The position numbers and the translations under genes are program-made. From Podospora anserina (lineage: Eukaryota): 64,000 bases of DNA. Below are positions 41,637 through 52,456 of this stretch, in pieces; positions within the stretch are counted from its first letter, which is position 1, and every line of letters begins with the position of its first letter. The stretch spans positions 124,001 to 188,000 of the forward strand of contig CM030335.1 in the NCBI GenBank assembly GCA_017654855.1, in the 5' to 3' direction. The notes beneath the pieces were generated by a model. That model was not told the DNA's origin. It did not search any database and worked only from the letters and a program-made list of their open reading frames with translations.

Positions 41637-43385
41637 CGACCGCGACGCGTCCTCCTACACTCAACATCAACTTTCTCTACAACCCAACATGCCTCCTACC
41701 TTAAATGAAGCCAGGATAATCTTAGCCCTTGAAGCTATTCAAAACACTCCGAAATTAAGCCTCCGAGCCGCAGCAAAGCTATATAACATACCATTCTTAA
41801 CCCTCCGTGACTGACGCGCCGGCCGGCCTACACGACGCGATACTACTCCCAAATCGAAGAAGCTTACTGAATCCGAAAAGAATGTTATTATTTAATACGT
41901 TATTAAGCTATGTGAGCGAGCTTTTTTACTAAGATTGCGTGGTGTGGAAGATATGGCTAACCAACTGCTGCGCGTACGCGACGCACCCTCTATTAGCAAG
42001 CTCTAGGCACGTAACTTCGTTAAATGCTAGCTATAGCTCCGTACGCGTTTTACGCATAAATATAATGACTAGAAGGCTAAATGCGAGGATCCAAAGGTTA
42101 TTACCGAGTGGTTTACGTTCGTACGGAATATTAAAGTTAAGTACGGTATTTTAAATAACGATATTTATAATTTTAACGAAACTAGGTTTATAATAAATAT
42201 TATTTTCCGGGTATAATAATTATTACTTTAGACGGCTTTAATAAGGTAAAACTAGCTTAGCTTAGTAATCGCGAATAGGTAAAAGTAATTTAATGAGTTA
42301 ATACCCTCGGCTAAACTATCTATTTATTTATTATTTTAATCGCGTAATATTACTTTACTAATTAAGATATCAAATATAATTTATGATTTATTTAATATAT
42401 TATAATTCTTAATATAAGAGGGCTAAATTAAATTAAATACTTTAATTATTATATAGTTTCCTATATAAAAAATAAATACCGGTTATTAATCCTCGACGGC
42501 TATAAAAATTACTACTCGACCGAATTTAAGCGCTATTATTAATAAAATAATATTATTACGCTCTATATACCTTTACATTCTTCTTACCTCTTCTAACTAC
42601 TCGATATTAGTTACTTTAGGCCGCTAAAATAAATATACGGTCGCTAAATTAAGGATTTAATATATATATATATTAATTATATAAGTAAGCTCGAGTTCCT
42701 TTATACTTTCCGCGAAACCTTCTTTACTTTTATAAAGAAAAAAATATATAGGATAGCTTTACGAGTATTAGCTTTGTACAGTATAATCCTAAAAGGGTAC
42801 TTTCTAAGTTAAATATAAAGCTTTGTACGTTAATATCCCCAATGTTACGGCCCAATACTCTATAGCTTTAGGTATACAAAATACTATAAAACCCCTAAGA
42901 AACTAATTTACAATTAATGCTTATTAAGACTCGCATTACTAACTATTAAAATAGCTCCACGACTTTAATGCTAACTGCGGTAAACTAGCTTACTAAAGGT
43001 ATAACGGCTATAATGCACTAGGTGGCTCTCCTTCGTGCAGAGGTCTCTTCGCTCCGTAAGGCTAATGAGGTACTAAGCAAGCGCTGGAGAGCTAAAAAGA
43101 CACGTGTGAGGCTTGGAGGGTAACTTACTGTACAAGAGGCACAGGATCTACTGGATCAGAAGGCCGTGAGTGAGCAGGTAATCCAGGAAAATCGACAAAG
43201 TGGTAGTGGTACAAGGGGGTCTCGTACGAAAACTCAGTGCTGTGGTGTATGCGGCAAGCCTGGCCATAATGCGCGGTCTTGCCAGGAGGCTGCAGATGCC
43301 TCAAGACTCAGCTGTTTCTGATGTTATTATAGTTGGTTGATAGTTTCGTTGTATTATAATGGAGGATGGTATTCGAAGGGTGGTC

Positions 43386-43432
43386 AAAAGTGACCGGTTC
43401 ACTTATATGACCGACTCGCTTATAAAGTACGT
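43386..43432 (-). repeat. Right terminal inverted repeat
   Basis: Reverse complement reads ACGTACTTTATAAGCGAGTCGGTCATATAAGTGAACCGGTCACTTTT, with 4 mismatches to the left TIR. Confidence 0.92.
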
Positions 43433-43879
43433 TAAAGGTGCCGTTAGTTACCTGTATGGTTTGTGACAAAGTAGCTTCGACGTCGCACATTAGTACCCGT
43501 AGAGGATTAAAAGGCAATAAAGGTACAGTGTAATCTGTATCTGATGAAAACCCCGGCCATTTTGTTGGTGTTGGATACGGGGTGATAAAAACCACAAGAT
43601 ATAGCTAATTCTGTATATCTCTGCAAACTCCAGACTGGTGTGAAGAAGTTGATTGAGATTCTGCATGACGCTTTTGCTTAACACGCGAGTTTCATCTGAA
43701 CGTTCTACCGTCCGTGGGATTACTCGATGCATCTGTCAAAGTGAGGTCATTGTCCGGTCACCAACCGCCTGCTCGCCAACCTCTATAACACTTTTTCTGT
43801 CTGTAACCCCAAAGTAATCCGGAAATTTGTGCCATCTTGCTTTCTCCCATAAGCTGACACATCTCTTCCACAAGTCACA

Positions 43880-44542
43880 ATGCTCTCCAAATCTCTCACC
43901 CAGCGGCTGCCGGGCGTTACACAAGCCCTCGCCAAACGCGCTCCGCGTGTAGTGGTCCCTTGCACACGTCCCATGCAGCTGCAACATCGACTGCAGGTGC
44001 AGCAGCTGCCCTCCTCGCCTTCATGTTTCCAACGCCGTACAGCCGTGTCGTTCCAGCCAAATCATGACTACCCGGGCCACGATCAAGCAAACGACATGGG
44101 AGGACCCGGAGGCCAAGAGTCCTTCCCGGCTAGTATGCCTTATCGAAGGTTTGTCTCTTGACTGTTTTCTCCTTCTTGGCATCGGCGCCAGAGCAGGTCT
44201 CTTCTTTTTATTTTTTTTTATTTACCTCGGTTTCTAGAATGACATGAACTAACCAAGGACTGTGGCTGAGTCGGGGAGAGTAGAAGAATTGAATACGAGA
44301 CATTCTACGGCGTGTTGCTGGCCATCGCCCTCATGTGTATCGCCAAGCTCGTGCAGCAGAACTACGACCCAAAGATGAATTATGTGTTGGTGCATGATAA
44401 TACAAAGGGGGAGCTGGACGATGTAAAGTACATCCCGATGCCCAAGGTGCGGGAGCAGCCGGTAGTTGCGGAGATCCGGGAGGAGGTGATTATCCCTATC
44501 AAGAAGGTTGATAGAGTTGACAAGGTGCAGAGGTGGGCTTGA
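43880..44542 (+). CDS. Small single-TM protein with a probable mitochondrial presequence
   Basis: Arg-rich, acid-free N-terminus MLSKSLTQRLPGVTQALAKRAPR. Intron about 44149-44283 (GTTTGT...ACTAAC...TAG) joins in frame to RIEYETFYGVLLAIALMCIAKLV (TM). Confidence 0.65.
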
Positions 44543-46151: not shown

Positions 46152-48692
46152 ATGGAAGAGCAGGCCCAGCGCTCGGGATCCGATGCCAGACGACGAAAAG
46201 TCCGAAAGGGAACGCACAGTTGTTGGGAGTGTAAGTCCGCACAATCTCTCTTTTCGCATCTTACCTCCCGATCCGACGTGCATATGATAGCGGCCGCGAC
46301 CGACCCGACACGCTGGTAACACGCCCAGGGTTCACAACCTGATTAGCTCCAACGGCTTTCTCGCAGGCCATTGGTAGCAAGGCGCTGACATGTATTTGCA
46401 GGTCGACGACGAAAGATACGATGCCAGTTTGGAAAGCAAGCCGACACCGTGTGCTTGCCCTGCCAGGCACGCGGCAGCGTCTGTCGAAGTCAAGAATTCG
46501 TCGATGCTCAACCGCCACAGCTTCCTGACCGCCGTCTTGCCCAGCGCCTAGCCCGTCTCGAGGACCTTGTCGCCAAAGTCGTTGACCGCGTGATGCCTGA
46601 GACTGGATCGGGAACCAGTTCAGCTCAAGACCATTCACAGGCCAGTTCACCGACACCGTCTGATGAAACGTTGATGAGCGATGTGGATGGCCAAGAGACA
46701 TCCCATCTGGGCCTGGAAGTGATGGAGTCGCCTGTTGGTCATGAGGCCTCAATGGCTATGCTGCTGGGCATCCAAGGCAGCGTCAACTCTCTACAGCAAC
46801 CCACGGCGAGGCTTACAATACCATCACGTCGGTCAACAGAAAGTGTATCGAGCAAAGGGCCAGCTCGCAGACGATGCGAAAAGATTTGTCGAGCCCTACA
46901 TTCCTTGTTTCCGTCCCAACACGACGTTGACGTTCTTGTCAAATCAACGCCTGCACCCTACTTCATCATCGCACTGTTCCATAGCTACCAGGACATCATG
47001 GAGGGCCTTTCCGAGACTCCTGAGAACATCGCCACAATCCCGCCCCCGAACGCTCATCCCACCGTTTTAGCCAAAAGTTTGATACAGCTGTGCATTTGCA
47101 TCCAGCAGCAACCCCCAGGAAGCGTGATGTCACAGGAGAGACAGAAACATTTCAACCCCTACAGCTTGATGAACGGCATCGTCTCGAAAGTTTCGCAGCT
47201 GGTTACTTCCAACGATGACCTTGTTGGGACAGCTGAAGGGCTCCAGTGTCTTATTATTCTCGGACACTGGCATAGCAATGCAGGAAACATCCGCAAAGCC
47301 TGGCTCATCTTTCGAAAGGCACTTTCTCTCGCTACCATGGTGGGCTTGAGTCGTAATGGTACGCAAGCCCTCAGGTTTGCGGATCTGACAACCAACGAGG
47401 CCACACGCCCATCACCGATGGCTTTATGGTACTGCATCAACGCAGCTGATCGAAGCTTGTCTCTTATGCTTGGGCTTCCCGCGGGCAGTCCGGATAACAC
47501 GTTCGCGAGCGAAGAGGCAATGCACAGGGATAGCCCACGAGAACGTTTCACCAAGATTCACACCGTCATTGCGAAGCGGATACTCGACCACAACCTCTCG
47601 CTAGTGTCCGATTTCATCAACCAGAAGGCGGCGGTTTCATACCAGCAGATTGATCACGAGCTCGAGCACGCGGCCAAGATTATGCCTTCTGACTGGTGGT
47701 TCGTTCCCACATTGCCATCAGAATGGCAGGCAGACTGGGAACAGGCTAAAGCGGCCATCTGCCATCTCGTTCTCCAGATCAACCACTTCAACCTTTCGCT
47801 CATACTCCACCTGCCCTACATCATACGCAGCATATCAACTGGAACCCCTGTTGGCGATGACCACAAGCCCTCCCTCGGCCTCGCCCGCCAAATCCTGCAA
47901 CGCTACATGGCCTACCAAAACATCTCCCAATCCCACCCGACCTGGACGTGTTATCAAGTGTCCTACGCAGCCCTCATGGCCTCCACAGCCCTCTGTCTAT
48001 TTACCCTGACCAACCAGACCAGCGAAGCGGACATCAAGCTCGTCAGCCTCACTCTGTCAAAAATGCAGCACCTTGCCCTACTCCAACCCCATAACAGGCT
48101 ATCCCAGTCATCTGTCACCCTCATATCCCAACTCCTCGACATAATCGACTCGGGAATCAAGCAACCCCTCAACCTCAACCTCAACCTCAACCTCCCCTTC
48201 TTCGGCCTCATCAACATCAACAACGCCCGCACATCGCCTCCACCAACCATGCCACCACCATCACAGCAAGCAGCAAGAAGAAGTGTCAGCTCCTCTGCCC
48301 ACTCACCACACATGATCCCCGTGCCAGCTACCTCCCCCGGGCCGCCGGGCGGCAGCCTCTCCCCCCATCCACACCCACCACGAGGAAGGCAAAGAAATGT
48401 CACTGTCCCGATTGGGTTCCACACATCACTGACAGATCCTTCCCTTCAGGGCCATGGGCACGCACATCAGAGTCCCATCTCTGGTCATGGGGGAGAGGAT
48501 GGGTATCACAATTTGCATCACGGGATGGGGTTTGATGCTCACCAACATCAGCAGCAGCAGACGCAGCAGCAACACTCTGATGATGATAGAAGTAGTAGTT
48601 TGGGAGAGATTCCAATGGGATCAGGAGGGGAGAATTGGGTGTTTACTGGGATGGAGTCGGGTTATTGGGGTTTAATGAACCAGGGGTTGTGA
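46152..48692 (+). CDS. Zn2Cys6 transcription factor with fungal-specific middle domain
   Basis: RRRKVRKGTHSCWEC, intron 46231-46401, RRRKIRCQF...VCLPCQARGSVC, leucine linker RLARLEDLV, GNIRKAW...RKALSLA and DRSLSLMLGLP. Confidence 0.9.
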
Positions 48693-48888
48693 GTTGATTT
48701 GGGATGTAGCATATACATACCTAGGTGCGTTTGGGAGATAGAAATTATAGATAGGAATCAGAGGGTGTCGAACTTTGGATACCTTATAGAAAGAACGAAC
48801 AAGACACATTCCCCTCACCCACTTCGGCTTCATATTGGCCAAAGGGCTTGGGTTGTGGACAAAGGTGGTAAAGTAAGACTTTGTTGTC

Positions 48889-51486
48889 CTACGCCAGAAC
48901 GACTCTTTGTCGCTCCCAAGCAATGTTTTCCATCGCCATGTCTGAGTCGGCGGACCACACACCGATTCGCTCAAATATATTTGTGCCAACATCGTCCTTA
49001 CCCCTGATTACCAGCCCATAGCTCCGTACCTCGTCTTCAAAGAATACTTTGACCAAATGAATCACAAAGACTTCTTGTAGACCCTTTTCCATGTCATCCA
49101 ACTTCCAATCGGGAACCCATTTCAACACCTTGGCACTTTTAGTACTCGTGCCAGTCAGCCGAATTCCTTCTCCGTCCGCCAGACATCCCCTAGCAACCGG
49201 TCCACTGACGGTCAAGGTCCCGTTATCCACCAAACTCCTTGCCTCCGACACAAGCTTCCCATTCCGCCACACCTCCACATTTCCCACGCCTGTGCAAAAG
49301 ACAAGGTCATGCTCTTTGGAGTTGATCTTATCCAAGATCCCCCTCGGCAGAAACCCAATCCTACCACTGACCGACGCCCAAGACCAAGACGGCGCACAAT
49401 ACATCTCCTGCCTCTCCTCTATCTCCTTCACAACCCACAACAGCCCTAGAGCCAACAGCTCCGAGTCCCACAACCCAGCCAGATAACCCACCTTTCCTCT
49501 TTGCTGCACCAGCTCCGCCACTCCCGCCAACGCGACCAATCGATCTGTCTGCCTCGTCAGCTGCCCCTTGCTATAAACACTCACAATCTCATACCACCTC
49601 TTCCAAAACTCGACCTTCTCCCCGAACCTCTGCGTCTCCACCGGCCCCAACCTCTGCAGCACATCCAACGCCCCTCTTATCCCTCTCACCGCTCTCCTCT
49701 CCTGGGGAGTATGCCCCTCCCCATTGATGTTGTGCTGCCCCGTCAACGACCGAATCGCCTCGATCCAGTTGACCAACCTCCCATCCTGCACCATGTACGG
49801 CGTGCTGTCATATCCCACCCCGTTCACGTGCAGTTCGGACGCCTGGAGAGTGTTGCACTCAAACAGCACCACATCCTCGCAAAAGTGTATCACCCTCCTC
49901 GCCAGCAACCTCTCCTGGAAAGCCCACGCGCGGTTGGTGAGCGGCGATTGCTCCACCCTCCAGTAAAAGAGCGCTCTCAGCGGCGGCGGGTTGGAGACAA
50001 AGCACCTCCTTTCTTCGGAGGTCATGATGTTCTGCTCGACCCACGAGAGCGATCGGTCTCGGAAGCAGCCGCCGGTCGAATCGGACGATGCTGTCGCGGC
50101 GAGGACGCAGTGGGCGTGGGTGAAGACTTGGCCCATGGTGGGGGACTCGGCCGCCCAGTCGGCGGGGGAGTCTTGTATGATGCAGAGGGAGTCGATCCAG
50201 AGGTAGCAGATGCCTAGCCGGCGGGTGGTGGCGATGGCGTGGCGGAAGTTGAGGGGGAGGGTGTCCTCGGTGATGTAGTACTTCATGAACCTGTGCCTGG
50301 AGGTGGTGAGCTTGCAGGCGATGTTGCCGCCCCAGCAGTGGGAGAGGGCGACGTATTCGCCTGCGCCGTCCTTGAGGTCGATCAGGAAGTCCATGTCAGA
50401 TTTGGTGTCGATGAGGCGGAGTTTGGGATTCTTGACCGTGCCGACGGCGATGAGGCGGGTTGGTCGGAATGGAGGGGTGTTGTGGGGGAGCTGGCAGGCT
50501 TTATGGCTGGAACAGTCCTTCAGCCAGGTTGTGATGGTCTTGACCGTAGCATCTGAGCCGGTGAACCTGGGGATTTTCTGCTCGGCCGTTAAGAGTCCCT
50601 CTGACACTTGTAGACCCAGCTCCTTCTTGGCGCCACCCGCCTCGAGGGAGACGGCCAGGGCCGGCCCTTGTTCTGACCAAAGGGGGTTCCTGACAAACTC
50701 AAGCTTCAGCTTGACACCTCCCGCTTCGAGATCACGTTCCCCATAGCGAGTATTCACGGTACCGTAACCCCTGATGAGCATAGGTGCCCCCGTTTCCTCC
50801 TCATCTGCCAATCGCTGACTCAACAAAGCCTCACAGAGACTACACCCGCTATCCTCCATCTCCTGGATCCTGTCGCACAGCAGGTGACGCTCCTCTGCTC
50901 TCGTAAACATGGCCCATGTCCCAGACAAAAGGCCAGACTGACCGACAACCTCTTTGCACCTCTCGCAAAGTCTGACGTCCCCAAACCGATGCTTGCTCCG
51001 GAACCTGGGCCACCGAGTCACATATCTCCCCCCAGAAAGACGGTACACGATACTCGGAAAGTTGCGTATCGGTCGAAGCACAAAGTGGCACCCGAGCGAC
51101 CACGCAAACCCCAAGATGAAGTAAGCCATCACGCCATAGAAGACGGCCGCGAACGCGAACACCAAGATCATCGCCGGAGCCAGCGAAATGCATATGATGA
51201 ACTGCACCCTGGTATCGACATCCGCATGCGACAGTGCGGCGAAGATGACGGCGCCAATCAGGCTGGGAATGAAATAGATGACAAAAGCGGGTTCGTCGAA
51301 CGCGATGAGAATCGCCCAGATGATAAACTCGACGGCGAGAAAGCTTGACCCGATGTCCTCCTCCCCTGGCGTCGGAAAGTACCTCAAGTAGAGGTATGTG
51401 ACAAGTACGATGGGTAAACCGCCGAGGAATGTTTTGCCCATGTTCTTGGGCGGAGGGCGGCGCGTCCGGCCATATCGTCGTGGCAT
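48889..51486 (-). CDS. TOL-like HET-domain protein with an N-terminal multi-pass transmembrane region
   Basis: WLKDC..H..C, PTRLI, YVALSHCWG, LPLNFRHAI..TRRLGICYLWIDSLCIIQD..DW..ES..M, PLTNRAWAFQERLLARRVIHF, DRLVALAG, YLAGLW and APSWSWAS. The first 140 or so residues hold 4-5 hydrophobic segments; one 865-aa ORF. Confidence 0.92.
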   Translation of the reverse strand: MPRRYGRTRRPPPKNMGKTFLGGLPIVLVTYLYLRYFPTPGEEDIGSSFLAVEFIIWAILIAFDEPAFVIYFIPSLIGAVIFAALSHADVDTRVQFIICISLAPAMILVFAFAAVFYGVMAYFILGFAWSLGCHFVLRPIRNFPSIVYRLSGGRYVTRWPRFRSKHRFGDVRLCERCKEVVGQSGLLSGTWAMFTRAEERHLLCDRIQEMEDSGCSLCEALLSQRLADEEETGAPMLIRGYGTVNTRYGERDLEAGGVKLKLEFVRNPLWSEQGPALAVSLEAGGAKKELGLQVSEGLLTAEQKIPRFTGSDATVKTITTWLKDCSSHKACQLPHNTPPFRPTRLIAVGTVKNPKLRLIDTKSDMDFLIDLKDGAGEYVALSHCWGGNIACKLTTSRHRFMKYYITEDTLPLNFRHAIATTRRLGICYLWIDSLCIIQDSPADWAAESPTMGQVFTHAHCVLAATASSDSTGGCFRDRSLSWVEQNIMTSEERRCFVSNPPPLRALFYWRVEQSPLTNRAWAFQERLLARRVIHFCEDVVLFECNTLQASELHVNGVGYDSTPYMVQDGRLVNWIEAIRSLTGQHNINGEGHTPQERRAVRGIRGALDVLQRLGPVETQRFGEKVEFWKRWYEIVSVYSKGQLTRQTDRLVALAGVAELVQQRGKVGYLAGLWDSELLALGLLWVVKEIEERQEMYCAPSWSWASVSGRIGFLPRGILDKINSKEHDLVFCTGVGNVEVWRNGKLVSEARSLVDNGTLTVSGPVARGCLADGEGIRLTGTSTKSAKVLKWVPDWKLDDMEKGLQEVFVIHLVKVFFEDEVRSYGLVIRGKDDVGTNIFERIGVWSADSDMAMENIAWERQRVVLA

Positions 51487-52456
51487 GTTGGCGGCTCACA
51501 GTATTGTGGAAGCTAGTAGTGCAACACCATGGCTTCCGCTTGATCGTGTTGTTCGTTTGACGTGTGTCTACGCTTAGTATATCAACGAGACCCTTGATGC
51601 GAAGGAGGTGGCGTTTTGCGGCTGAGTTGGATGTTAACCCCCAGACTAGCCCAAAAGGGAAGCATTGCGACATATTATCGGTTTCGATTTACTCCAATCA
51701 CAGAGTTCCTGCGCTGTTGTGCCTTGTGAAACCCAGAAGCATGGGGCTCGAACTCACAGTAAAACCTGAAACTTGGAAATTCCAGCTTGGAGAGCCAATT
51801 ATCTCAGTTTATAGTGGTCCTGGCCACCCAACCTCCCAGCTTTCTTCGTCTTTCCGACCTATACCCCTAACCGTACATTATAAGCAGTTACGTTACTGCT
51901 ACTTACCTATTACTGTCCCAACGCCAACCCCAAGATGTCCAAAACGTTCGGCTCGCTCTCAATCGCAACAGGATTTGTAGGAATACACCCATCGGTCATT
52001 CAGTTCCCAATCAGACCGTCAAGAATATCCCTCCCGTCAGTCAGTGACCCTGCCCCCAATGTGATGATCAAATCGGGAGAGAGGCGGTGCAGGTCAGAGG
52101 TGACCTCTAGGATGCCAGGCCAGCGGACGTGTTGGCGTATGCCGATGATATGTCTTGGCCTAGGGCGTCGATGAGGCTGATGGCGATGGGGCGGCGAAGG
52201 TGTTGCTTGTATGGTGGAAGTTGTGTGGGTGTTTTGTTGGTCTGGTTTTGAGGTCCAAGTGTCACCGGTCATGGATGATGATAGGTAAAGTCTTTATTTC
52301 CTGTTTAATTCTCCCACCGCGGGCGCGCCCCCCCCCACAAGTCAACCCCGCTTGCCCTGAACACTTAGGAAGATAGGTAGTGAATTTGCTGGCATTGTCA
52401 TTTTCATCTTGTGCCTAGAAGTCTTCACGACAGCCATCGACTTCCTCCAAAACCTT

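Follow-up and report, generated by a model that had tools for sequence, protein, structure and literature searches.

Membrane-bound proteins with TIR domains include the Toll-like and IL-1 receptors as well as SARM1, which resides at mitochondria. In fungi, N. crassa TOL is built from a coiled coil, an LRR region, and a HET domain, the coiled-coil and LRR features being weak in TOL itself. According to the available portions of PMC10197012, the HET domain induces cell death, HET genes are poorly conserved between distant species, and HET-S, with its HeLo domain, is a death protein of fungi with its action at a membrane. Cell-death induction by HET and a remote homology to TIR are stated in the accessible parts of both PMC10197012 and PMC12881547; in those parts, neither review assigns the HET domain a mechanism, an enzymatic activity, or a structure. 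No description of a transmembrane (TM)-bearing HET protein was found in the literature covered, which took in neither subscription journals nor supplements.

Within the window, the whole 64,000-nucleotide stretch of Podospora anserina DNA analyzed here, we studied an ORF encoding a HET-domain protein, P0001 (Table 1). Its ATG lies at position 51486, with an in-frame stop four codons upstream and further stops beyond. The preliminary description had claimed that one uninterrupted ORF encodes a TM block and a double-CxxC (4-Cys) motif together with an intact HET domain, and the ORF list and translation bore this out. The hydrophobic segments that it quoted were found at residues 20–34 (FLGGLPIVLVTYLYL), 49–63 (FLAVEFIIWAILIAF), 67–85 (AFVIYFIPSLIGAVIFAAL), and 94–131 (VQFIICISLAPAMILVFAFAAVFYGVMAYFILGFAWSL), and the quoted Cys/His motifs at residues 173–177 (LCERC), His-201, and residues 214–218 (GCSLC). 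Along the chain, a basic tail and the hydrophobic block are followed by a PRFR-containing basic juxtamembrane stretch, the 4-Cys module, a β-rich linker, the HET domain, and a C-terminal region. The surrounding genes encode two Fungal_trans transcription factors and a fragment of a pyridine nucleotide-disulphide oxidoreductase; none of these neighbors is an NLR, a patatin, or another evident partner.

Table 1. Features of the P0001 locus, with positions in the window
Feature	Position	Strand	Basis
Whole intronless ORF, P0001 (865 aa + stop)	48889..51486	(-)	ORF list and translation
Basic N-terminal tail, residues 1–15 (MPRRYGRTRRPPPKN)	51442..51486	(-)	Orthologue alignment, charge count
Hydrophobic (TM) block, residues 16–141, four to five predicted membrane-spanning helices	51064..51441	(-)	Hydropathy, AlphaFold2, orthologue identity
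Basic juxtamembrane stretch, residues 142–172, with NFPxIxY and PRFR motifs	50971..51063	(-)	Invariant residues, charge count
4-Cys module, residues 173–232 (LCxxC...GCxLC), candidate zinc site	50791..50970	(-)	Residues invariant in 31/31
β-rich linker, residues 233–340	50467..50790	(-)	Alignment invariants and AlphaFold2 strands
HET domain (Pfam PF06985), residues 378–525	49912..50355	(-)	Pfam, E 7.4e-31
Conserved post-HET region, residues 526–700, and more variable β-rich C-terminal part, residues 701–865	48892..49911	(-)	Orthologue identity, AlphaFold2 secondary structure
Probable 5′ untranslated leader (inferred)	51487..51598	(-)	Contig ends, indel at 51530, upstream in-frame stops

Kyte–Doolittle averaging over 19 residues gave four strong peaks in P0001, with means of 2.19, 2.39, 2.66, and 1.77 (windows starting at residues 45, 67, 97, and 119), and a weaker first segment at residues 16–34 (1.36), together spanning residues 16–137, in agreement with the four to five hydrophobic segments claimed beforehand (residues about 19–137); past residue 170, no window exceeded 1.42. 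The AlphaFold2 (AF2) model likewise contained helices at residues 16–36, 45–62, and 66–85 and one long helix at residues 90–141, all with low confidence (pLDDT only 45–70 in the TM block); the last helix, at 52 residues, is too long for a single span. Among the 44 double-CxxC relatives described below, 93 hydrophobic peaks (18.1 per 1000 aa) were counted ahead of the first Cys, over 5149 aa in total, versus three (0.10 per 1000 aa) in the 31140 aa that follow it, so the placement of the block ahead of the 4-Cys motif is more than chance. A VIA-align search with the full AF2 model returned only generic helix bundles (Z ≤ 6.8), and a re-check of Foldseek's list for the same model gave Z ≤ 4.6; on these matches, neither the TM block nor the C-terminal part could be given a named fold. 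A Foldseek search of the full model against the PDB returned nothing at E ≤ 0.001, and an ESM Atlas look-up of residues 1–235 gave no usable match.

Both flanks of the block are strongly basic. The N terminus before the first peak (Kyte–Doolittle mean ≥ 1.6, residue 45) carries eight Lys and Arg versus three Asp and Glu residues, and between the last peak and the first Cys the counts are ten and one; positive juxtamembrane charges were likewise in excess in 28 of the 33 TM-bearing relatives (two ties, three negative). Since basic flanks face the cytosol according to the positive-inside rule, the N-terminal tail and everything from residue 142 onward would be cytosolic, the number of spans being even and most probably four. 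Were there five spans, the HET side would instead face the lumen or the exterior; of the five segments, the first is the weak one. The block would be inserted co-translationally and serve as an anchor, and the HET domain, the cell-death–inducing module, would thus be held on the cytosolic face of a membrane, where its activation could be governed by two-dimensional crowding or by a membrane-located partner. From the sequence, P0001 is probably an integral membrane HET-domain protein, anchored by its multihelix block and with the HET domain facing the cytosol.

Starting at an identical Met, the TM block was retained in orthologues from six further genera or species of Sordariales: in all four full-length matches of the N-terminal search and also in the Lasiosphaeria hispida and Lasiosphaeris hirsuta proteins (47% overall identity). 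The order of parts set out above was preserved in Sordariales orthologues and also, where the TM sequence has diverged, in a large set of relatives from Sordariomycetes, Dothideomycetes, and Leotiomycetes. The basic tail was identical in three of the four orthologues and had two changes in the fourth. Identity was 63–77% in the TM block versus 86–92% in the HET part; for P0003 to P0005, it was 89–91% over residues 526–700 and 64–72% over residues 701–865. The 90% cluster had 10 members. Full-length orthologues were 74–98% identical across genera, which sets P0001 apart from known HET proteins as the available text of PMC10197012 describes their genes, namely as poorly conserved. Two haplotypes were about 1.3% apart (53 differences in about 3760 bases, flank included), no indel separating them inside the ORF and one of a single base, at 51530, lying 44 nt ahead of the ATG. 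Among the 20 ORF differences listed, 11 were synonymous and nine were not (15 further differences were unlisted), and the two haplotypes gave no sign of strong polymorphism. The gene appears to be a conserved one-to-one orthologue rather than a rapidly evolving allorecognition (het) locus.

The HET domain of P0001 matched the Pfam profile over its full length (positions 1–146 of 146; 107.9 bits against a cut-off of 22.5), and the Pfam scan detected no other family at E ≤ 1, including NACHT, WD40, lectin, TIR, LRR, and Ig. Ala-380, Leu-381, Trp-385, Gly-386, Trp-430, Asp-432, Ser-433, Ile-436, and Gln-438 were invariant in 31/31 aligned sequences, as were Arg-519, Trp-521, Phe-523, Gln-524, and Glu-525; the conserved blocks read ALSHCWG, WIDSLCIxQ, and RAWxFQE. 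In fold comparisons with the AF2 model of the domain (pLDDT 82), the 50 matches listed included 13 TIR domains, four ThsB proteins, and nine proteins of the nucleoside-deoxyribosyltransferase (NDT) type at Z 3.6–5.8 (NDT enzymes 5.2–5.8, TIR domains 3.6–5.1), all TIR and NDT matches falling below Z 8, under which matches may reflect common arrangements. The best match was a structural-genomics protein, 1t1j (Z 6.0). No PDB entry was detected at E ≤ 0.001 by Foldseek with the HET model or below E 0.7 by a sequence search with the HET profile. The model suggests a weak resemblance of the HET fold to TIR and nucleoside 2-deoxyribosyltransferase. NADase TIRs have a catalytic glutamate; Glu-525 and Glu-543, both invariant in the 31-sequence alignment, are candidates for such a residue.

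Between the membrane and the HET domain, Leu-173, Cys-174, Cys-177, Gly-189, Cys-215, and Cys-218 of the 4-Cys module were invariant in 31/31 sequences, and the module is a candidate zinc site. In the linker, the same alignment showed Cys-325 and Cys-331 to be invariant and Trp-321 and His-328 nearly so, and AF2 predicted strands at residues 258–265, 276–283, and 292–298 and a helix at residues 312–325. In a five-sequence alignment including the L. hispida protein, Asn-142, Phe-143, Pro-144, and Pro-160 to Arg-163 of the juxtamembrane stretch were invariant. A PR[FYW][RK] motif within 40 aa before the first Cys was present in 18 of 33 TM-bearing versus one of 11 TM-less 4-Cys relatives.

We examined how widespread this layout is in a set of 121 proteins comprising the query and the 120 closest relatives of its HET part. 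A double CxxC was present in 44 of them, and a hydrophobic peak preceded the first Cys in 33 of these 44 versus two of the 77 proteins without the module. The fusion is therefore not peculiar to P0001, which appears to belong to a widespread membrane-anchored HET subfamily; the TM-bearing double-CxxC relatives span three Pezizomycotina classes (Sordariomycetes, Dothideomycetes, and Leotiomycetes), with divergent TM sequences. In an unrooted FastTree phylogeny, all 33 TM-bearing rows fell in one half of 88 rows and nine of the 11 TM-less 4-Cys rows in the other half of 31 rows (split supported at 82), and only three changes were needed to account for TM presence among the 4-Cys rows. The two TM-less proteins in the TM-bearing half, P0025 and P0035, look like truncated gene models because they begin within, or immediately past, the final hydrophobic segment that their TM-bearing sisters have. 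Interspersed in that half were 51 rows with neither TM segments nor the 4-Cys motif, many of which we take to be cut gene models from metagenome contigs; some, from annotated genomes, may be true short forms.

By sequence, the TM block was found only in the family of P0001 and always with HET. A phmmer search with residues 1–170 against 1.84 billion representatives gave two matches, one a distant full-length relative; the other is an 87-aa piece that resembles a C-to-T converted copy. The six matches of a TM-block profile among longer proteins were all Sordariales HET proteins. In a 122-protein set, the N-terminal profile also matched P0010 to P0014, P0009, P0028, P0029, and P0020 (E 1e-21 to 1e-3), most matches covering the last helix and the juxtamembrane part. 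Fusions of the block to other effectors or NLRs were not found in the phmmer and profile searches, an absence that is weak evidence. The earlier view of the block as an added module held in part: 11 of the 44 4-Cys relatives begin at the CxxC without TM segments, but the TM-bearing form is the rule among the nearest kin, and since the tree is unrooted, gain and loss of the block are not distinguishable on it.

The preliminary description had read the block as a sensor or receptor for a ligand or membrane damage that switches on HET, in the manner of a TM-TIR immune receptor. A membrane block and a death-type domain do share one chain, some polar positions within the helices or close to them (Asp-64, Thr-92–Arg-93, and Ala-103–Pro-104) were invariant in the five-sequence alignment, and the conserved 4-Cys module between membrane and HET could relay a change. 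However, the loops joining the helices predicted from hydropathy and AF2 are 8, 3, and 4–8 residues long, which leaves no ectodomain and no structural room for a receptor; Glu-53, inside helix 2, is not retained in the Lasiosphaeria protein; relatives have anywhere from 1 to 5 hydrophobic segments; and between distant relatives, no part is less conserved than the TM block (4–25% identity versus 41–68% for HET). We consider a sensor unlikely. The short loops and the basic flanks favor a cytosol-facing anchor over a ligand sensor, and a tether also fits better because the TM sequence evolves faster and the segment number varies.

Could the block itself kill, as a latent membrane-disrupting or pore-forming module resembling the N-terminal helix of HeLo/HET-S, with HET being regulatory? 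It stands ahead of HET throughout a clade, but strongly hydrophobic consecutive segments are inserted into membranes during synthesis, so that four in a row at 1.8–2.7 would not stay latent. Membrane attack is known for fungal HeLo domains, but the HET domain alone is reported to suffice for death (both in the accessible part of PMC10197012), and the full-model matches carried no pore-former signal; we regard a killing block as very improbable. It is more improbable still that the block is absent from the protein made, transcription or translation starting downstream (for example, at Met-193 or Met-210) and the upstream ORF being an annotation artefact. No run recorded as RNA covers the TM block, and other fungi have TM-less 4-Cys HET proteins. 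Nevertheless, the block is in frame without stops or frameshifts at the above identity over four genera and keeps its hydrophobicity in two more genera at 22–25% identity, and the sole indel near the start between the haplotypes sits upstream of the ATG. In addition, contigs of four runs, presumed to be RNA, end at 51548, 51563, 51563, and 51598, 62–112 nt beyond the ATG (none of the four has cover at about 51600–51870), a weak hint of one transcript that includes the TM block.

Known HET proteins have in common with P0001 the HET domain and its conserved blocks; P0001 differs from them in its N-terminal multipass block and its juxtamembrane PRFR and 4-Cys module. The 4-Cys HET proteins whose sequence begins at the CxxC, such as P0083 (Paraphoma chrysanthemicola), P0102 (Xylographa bjoerkii), and P0111 (Hypoxylon cercidicola), share the double CxxC before HET but lack hydrophobic segments ahead of the first Cys, and 10 of the 11 are without PR[FYW][RK]. 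In comparison with TOL, Pfam showed no coiled coil or LRR beside HET in P0001, features that are weak in TOL itself. HeLo exposes a single helix only after activation, whereas in P0001 several hydrophobic helices would be constitutive, and its effector domain is another one. Membrane-bound TIR proteins place a TIR-like fold at the membrane facing the cytosol, as proposed for P0001, and the HET model aligned with the SARM1 TIR domain (Z 5.1, rmsd 3.2, 94 residues aligned) and the Hydra TRR-2 TIR domain (Z 5.0); unlike the Toll-like and IL-1 receptors, however, P0001 has a multipass anchor without an ectodomain, and it has no Pfam TIR and no SAM or ARM domain.

A broader and more doubtful proposal, which we put forward only tentatively, is that a large, old Pezizomycotina HET clade consists of resident membrane proteins in which activation of a TIR-like HET enzyme is coupled to the membrane, or to a partner within it, by a conserved juxtamembrane PR[FY]R motif and a zinc-type 4-Cys module. 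If true, this would be a fungal counterpart of membrane-based TIR signaling, and a cellular site of action would be defined for the HET domain for the first time. The recurrence of the layout in many related fungal proteins offers a hint about the site of action of a poorly understood domain. A conserved membrane-tethered HET subfamily would narrow the search for substrates and partners, offer natural comparisons of full-length and anchor-less forms, and make the proposed kinship with membrane-proximal TIR signaling testable in a harmless model fungus.

Features of the window and their coordinates
Feature	Coordinates	Strand	Description
P0001 ORF	48889-51486	minus	single open frame, 865 codons
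Overlapping ORF	50849-51673	minus	274 codons, other frame; overlaps the TM block and leader of P0001
Convergent neighbour	46593-48692	plus	699-aa Fungal_trans protein with an NLNLNL repeat and a Q-rich tail
Low-GC stretch	42001-44000		GC 0.379 vs 0.49-0.57 in the rest of the window; may be a repeat or RIP-affected

The frame encoding P0001, the window protein, is preceded by an in-frame stop four codons 5' of the ATG at 51486 and by more stops further upstream; this Met is therefore the earliest possible start in the exon. All of the segments quoted for the protein in the preliminary description were found in the translation. Pfam recognized one family, HET (PF06985; residues 378-525, E 7.4e-31), with the entire profile covered. 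Kyte-Doolittle hydropathy, averaged over 19 residues, displayed peaks of 2.19, 2.39, 2.66, and 1.77 at window starts 45, 67, 97, and 119 and a lesser peak of 1.36 at residues 16-34, and did not exceed 1.42 beyond residue 170. An AlphaFold2 model based on 31 full-length relatives (31 of the 33 TM-bearing proteins described below; P0015 and P0062 were omitted) had a mean pLDDT of 76 and a pTM of 0.70. In the hydrophobic TM block (residues 16-141), it contained helices at 16-36, 45-62, and 66-85 and a long one at 90-141, with a pLDDT of just 45-70 there.

A search scored on residues 1-340 detected four full-length proteins, from Podospora pseudoanserina, Triangularia setosa, Cercophora samala, and Apiosordaria backusii, all starting with MPRRYGR and 74-97% identical over the query part; the window accordingly derives from a close relative of P. 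pseudoanserina (Sordariales). The TM block is kept in all four orthologues. In the three from other genera (P0003-P0005), it was 63-77% identical to that of P0001, compared with 86-92% for the HET domain and 64-72% for the last 165 residues. Lasiosphaeria hispida and Lasiosphaeris hirsuta proteins had the same order of parts, with 47% identity overall. Conservation of the main-frame protein in orthologues argues that the overlapping 274-codon ORF is not coding.

We next consider the architecture among HET relatives. Of 8000 proteins scored in a search with residues 173-865, 1811 passed E<=1e-10; P0001 and the best 120 of these 1811 (121 proteins, excluding the 87-aa P0006) were scanned. A double CxxC (the 4-Cys module, residues 173-232 in P0001), with the pairs 25-62 residues apart, preceded the HET motif in 44 of the 121. 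Within this set, 33 of the 44 had a 19-residue hydropathy of at least 1.6 ahead of the first Cys (two or more such segments in 30; 31 and 28 passed at cut-offs of 1.9 and 2.2, respectively), vs 2 of the 77 proteins without a double CxxC having a peak within the first 200 residues. The 44 had 18.1 hydrophobic peaks per 1000 aa N-terminal to the first Cys vs 0.10 C-terminal to it. TM-bearing members included Lophium mytilinum and Clohesyomyces aquaticus (Dothideomycetes) and Cudoniella acicularis (Leotiomycetes). Among the 4-Cys proteins, 18 of 33 TM-bearing vs 1 of 11 TM-less ones had a PR[FYW][RK] motif no more than 40 residues ahead of the first Cys. An N-terminal profile run against a small set of 122 proteins also matched several of these relatives, P0010 (1e-21), P0011 (2e-9), P0014 (4e-9), and others down to P0020 (1e-3), chiefly over the last helix and juxtamembrane part. 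Judged from these sequences, the TM, 4-Cys, and HET layout is widespread well beyond P0001. Separately, P0038 (Podospora aff. communis, 958 aa), a HET relative without an N-terminal hydrophobic block, had four hydrophobic peaks C-terminal to its HET domain (residues 721, 782, 839, and 917), which may represent a second route for tethering HET to the membrane.

A FastTree tree built from the HET domain onward (119 rows, 407 columns; P0082 and P0094, with short HET matches, were left out) was unrooted and split into two halves with a support of only 82. One half (31 rows) comprised 22 proteins with neither feature and 9 with the 4-Cys module only; the other (88 rows) contained all 33 TM-bearing proteins. 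TM presence over the 4-Cys rows required three changes. The two TM-less 4-Cys rows of the TM half, P0025 and P0035, look like cut gene models, since they start inside or just past the last hydrophobic segment of close or near-identical sisters. Interspersed in this half were 51 rows with neither feature, many from metagenome contigs, which may also be cut models, and some from annotated genomes.

The preliminary description had proposed searching for the N-terminus fused to other effectors, and none was found: a phmmer search of 1.84 billion representatives with residues 1-170 had two matches, the L. hispida protein and an artefact-like 87-aa piece, and a profile from five N-terminal blocks, searched among longer proteins, gave six, each a Sordariales HET protein. 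By sequence, the TM block was found only in the P0001 family. The 87-aa piece, P0006, aligned with residues 14-94; nearly all its differences were of the C-to-T coding-strand type (P to L/F, A to V, T to I, H to Y, R to C), and it resembles the product of assembling bisulfite-converted reads rather than a real gene. No description of a TM-bearing HET protein was found in the literature searched, with most subscription journals outside its scope; such proteins are already public, annotated solely as HET-domain proteins.

Contigs of four runs tentatively taken as RNA (none is on record as such) covered the P0001 ORF without joints. They ended at 51548, 51563, 51563, and 51598, 62-112 nt 5' of the ATG, and two of the four runs broke between the convergent stop codons (48755-48815), together weakly hinting at a single transcript containing the TM block. 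A second haplotype was present in three of the four and in run X4 differed at 53 positions over ~3760 bases, the only indels being one of 6 bases in the neighbouring gene and one of 1 base at 51530, upstream of the ATG. Among 20 listed differences in the ORF, 11 were synonymous and 9 were not, with 15 more beyond the list; nothing in the two haplotypes compared points to a hyper-variable het locus. In the convergent Fungal_trans gene, the second haplotype had its 6-base insertion at 48166 and ~2% differences in the 3' part. The neighbours, two Fungal_trans transcription factors and an oxidoreductase fragment, included no obvious partner gene.

Passages of two reviews (PMC10197012, PMC12881547) report HET as sufficient for cell death and remotely TIR-related, with an activity yet unknown. 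Our HET model (residues 340-560, 17 sequences, pLDDT 82) best matched a structural-genomics protein (Z 6.0), followed by nucleoside 2-deoxyribosyltransferases (Z 5.2-5.8), SARM1 TIR (Z 5.1), and Hydra TIR (Z 5.0). The 50 matches listed, including 13 titled TIR, 4 ThsB, and 9 of deoxyribosyltransferase type, all fell below the Z 8 caution line, and Foldseek with this model gave no PDB match at E<=0.001; the likeness is therefore weak, though consistent with the literature.

The P0001 tail ahead of the first strong peak contained 8 K+R vs 3 D+E, and the region from the last peak to the first Cys 10 vs 1; the juxtamembrane net charge was positive in 28 of 33 TM-bearing relatives. Since basic flanks of membrane segments face the cytosol (the positive-inside rule), both the N-tail and the post-TM part would be cytosolic, and the span number would be even. 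The last hydrophobic stretch was 8 residues shorter in the C. samala protein and the two Lasiosphaeriaceae proteins (L. hispida and L. hirsuta); the ~36 residues that remain fit a single long span better than a hairpin, favouring four predicted spans. Hydropathy and AlphaFold2 predicted inter-helix loops of 8, 3, and 4-8 residues, which leave no room for a ligand-binding ectodomain and speak against the receptor or sensor role first proposed. We therefore read the predicted TM block as an anchor, not a sensor.
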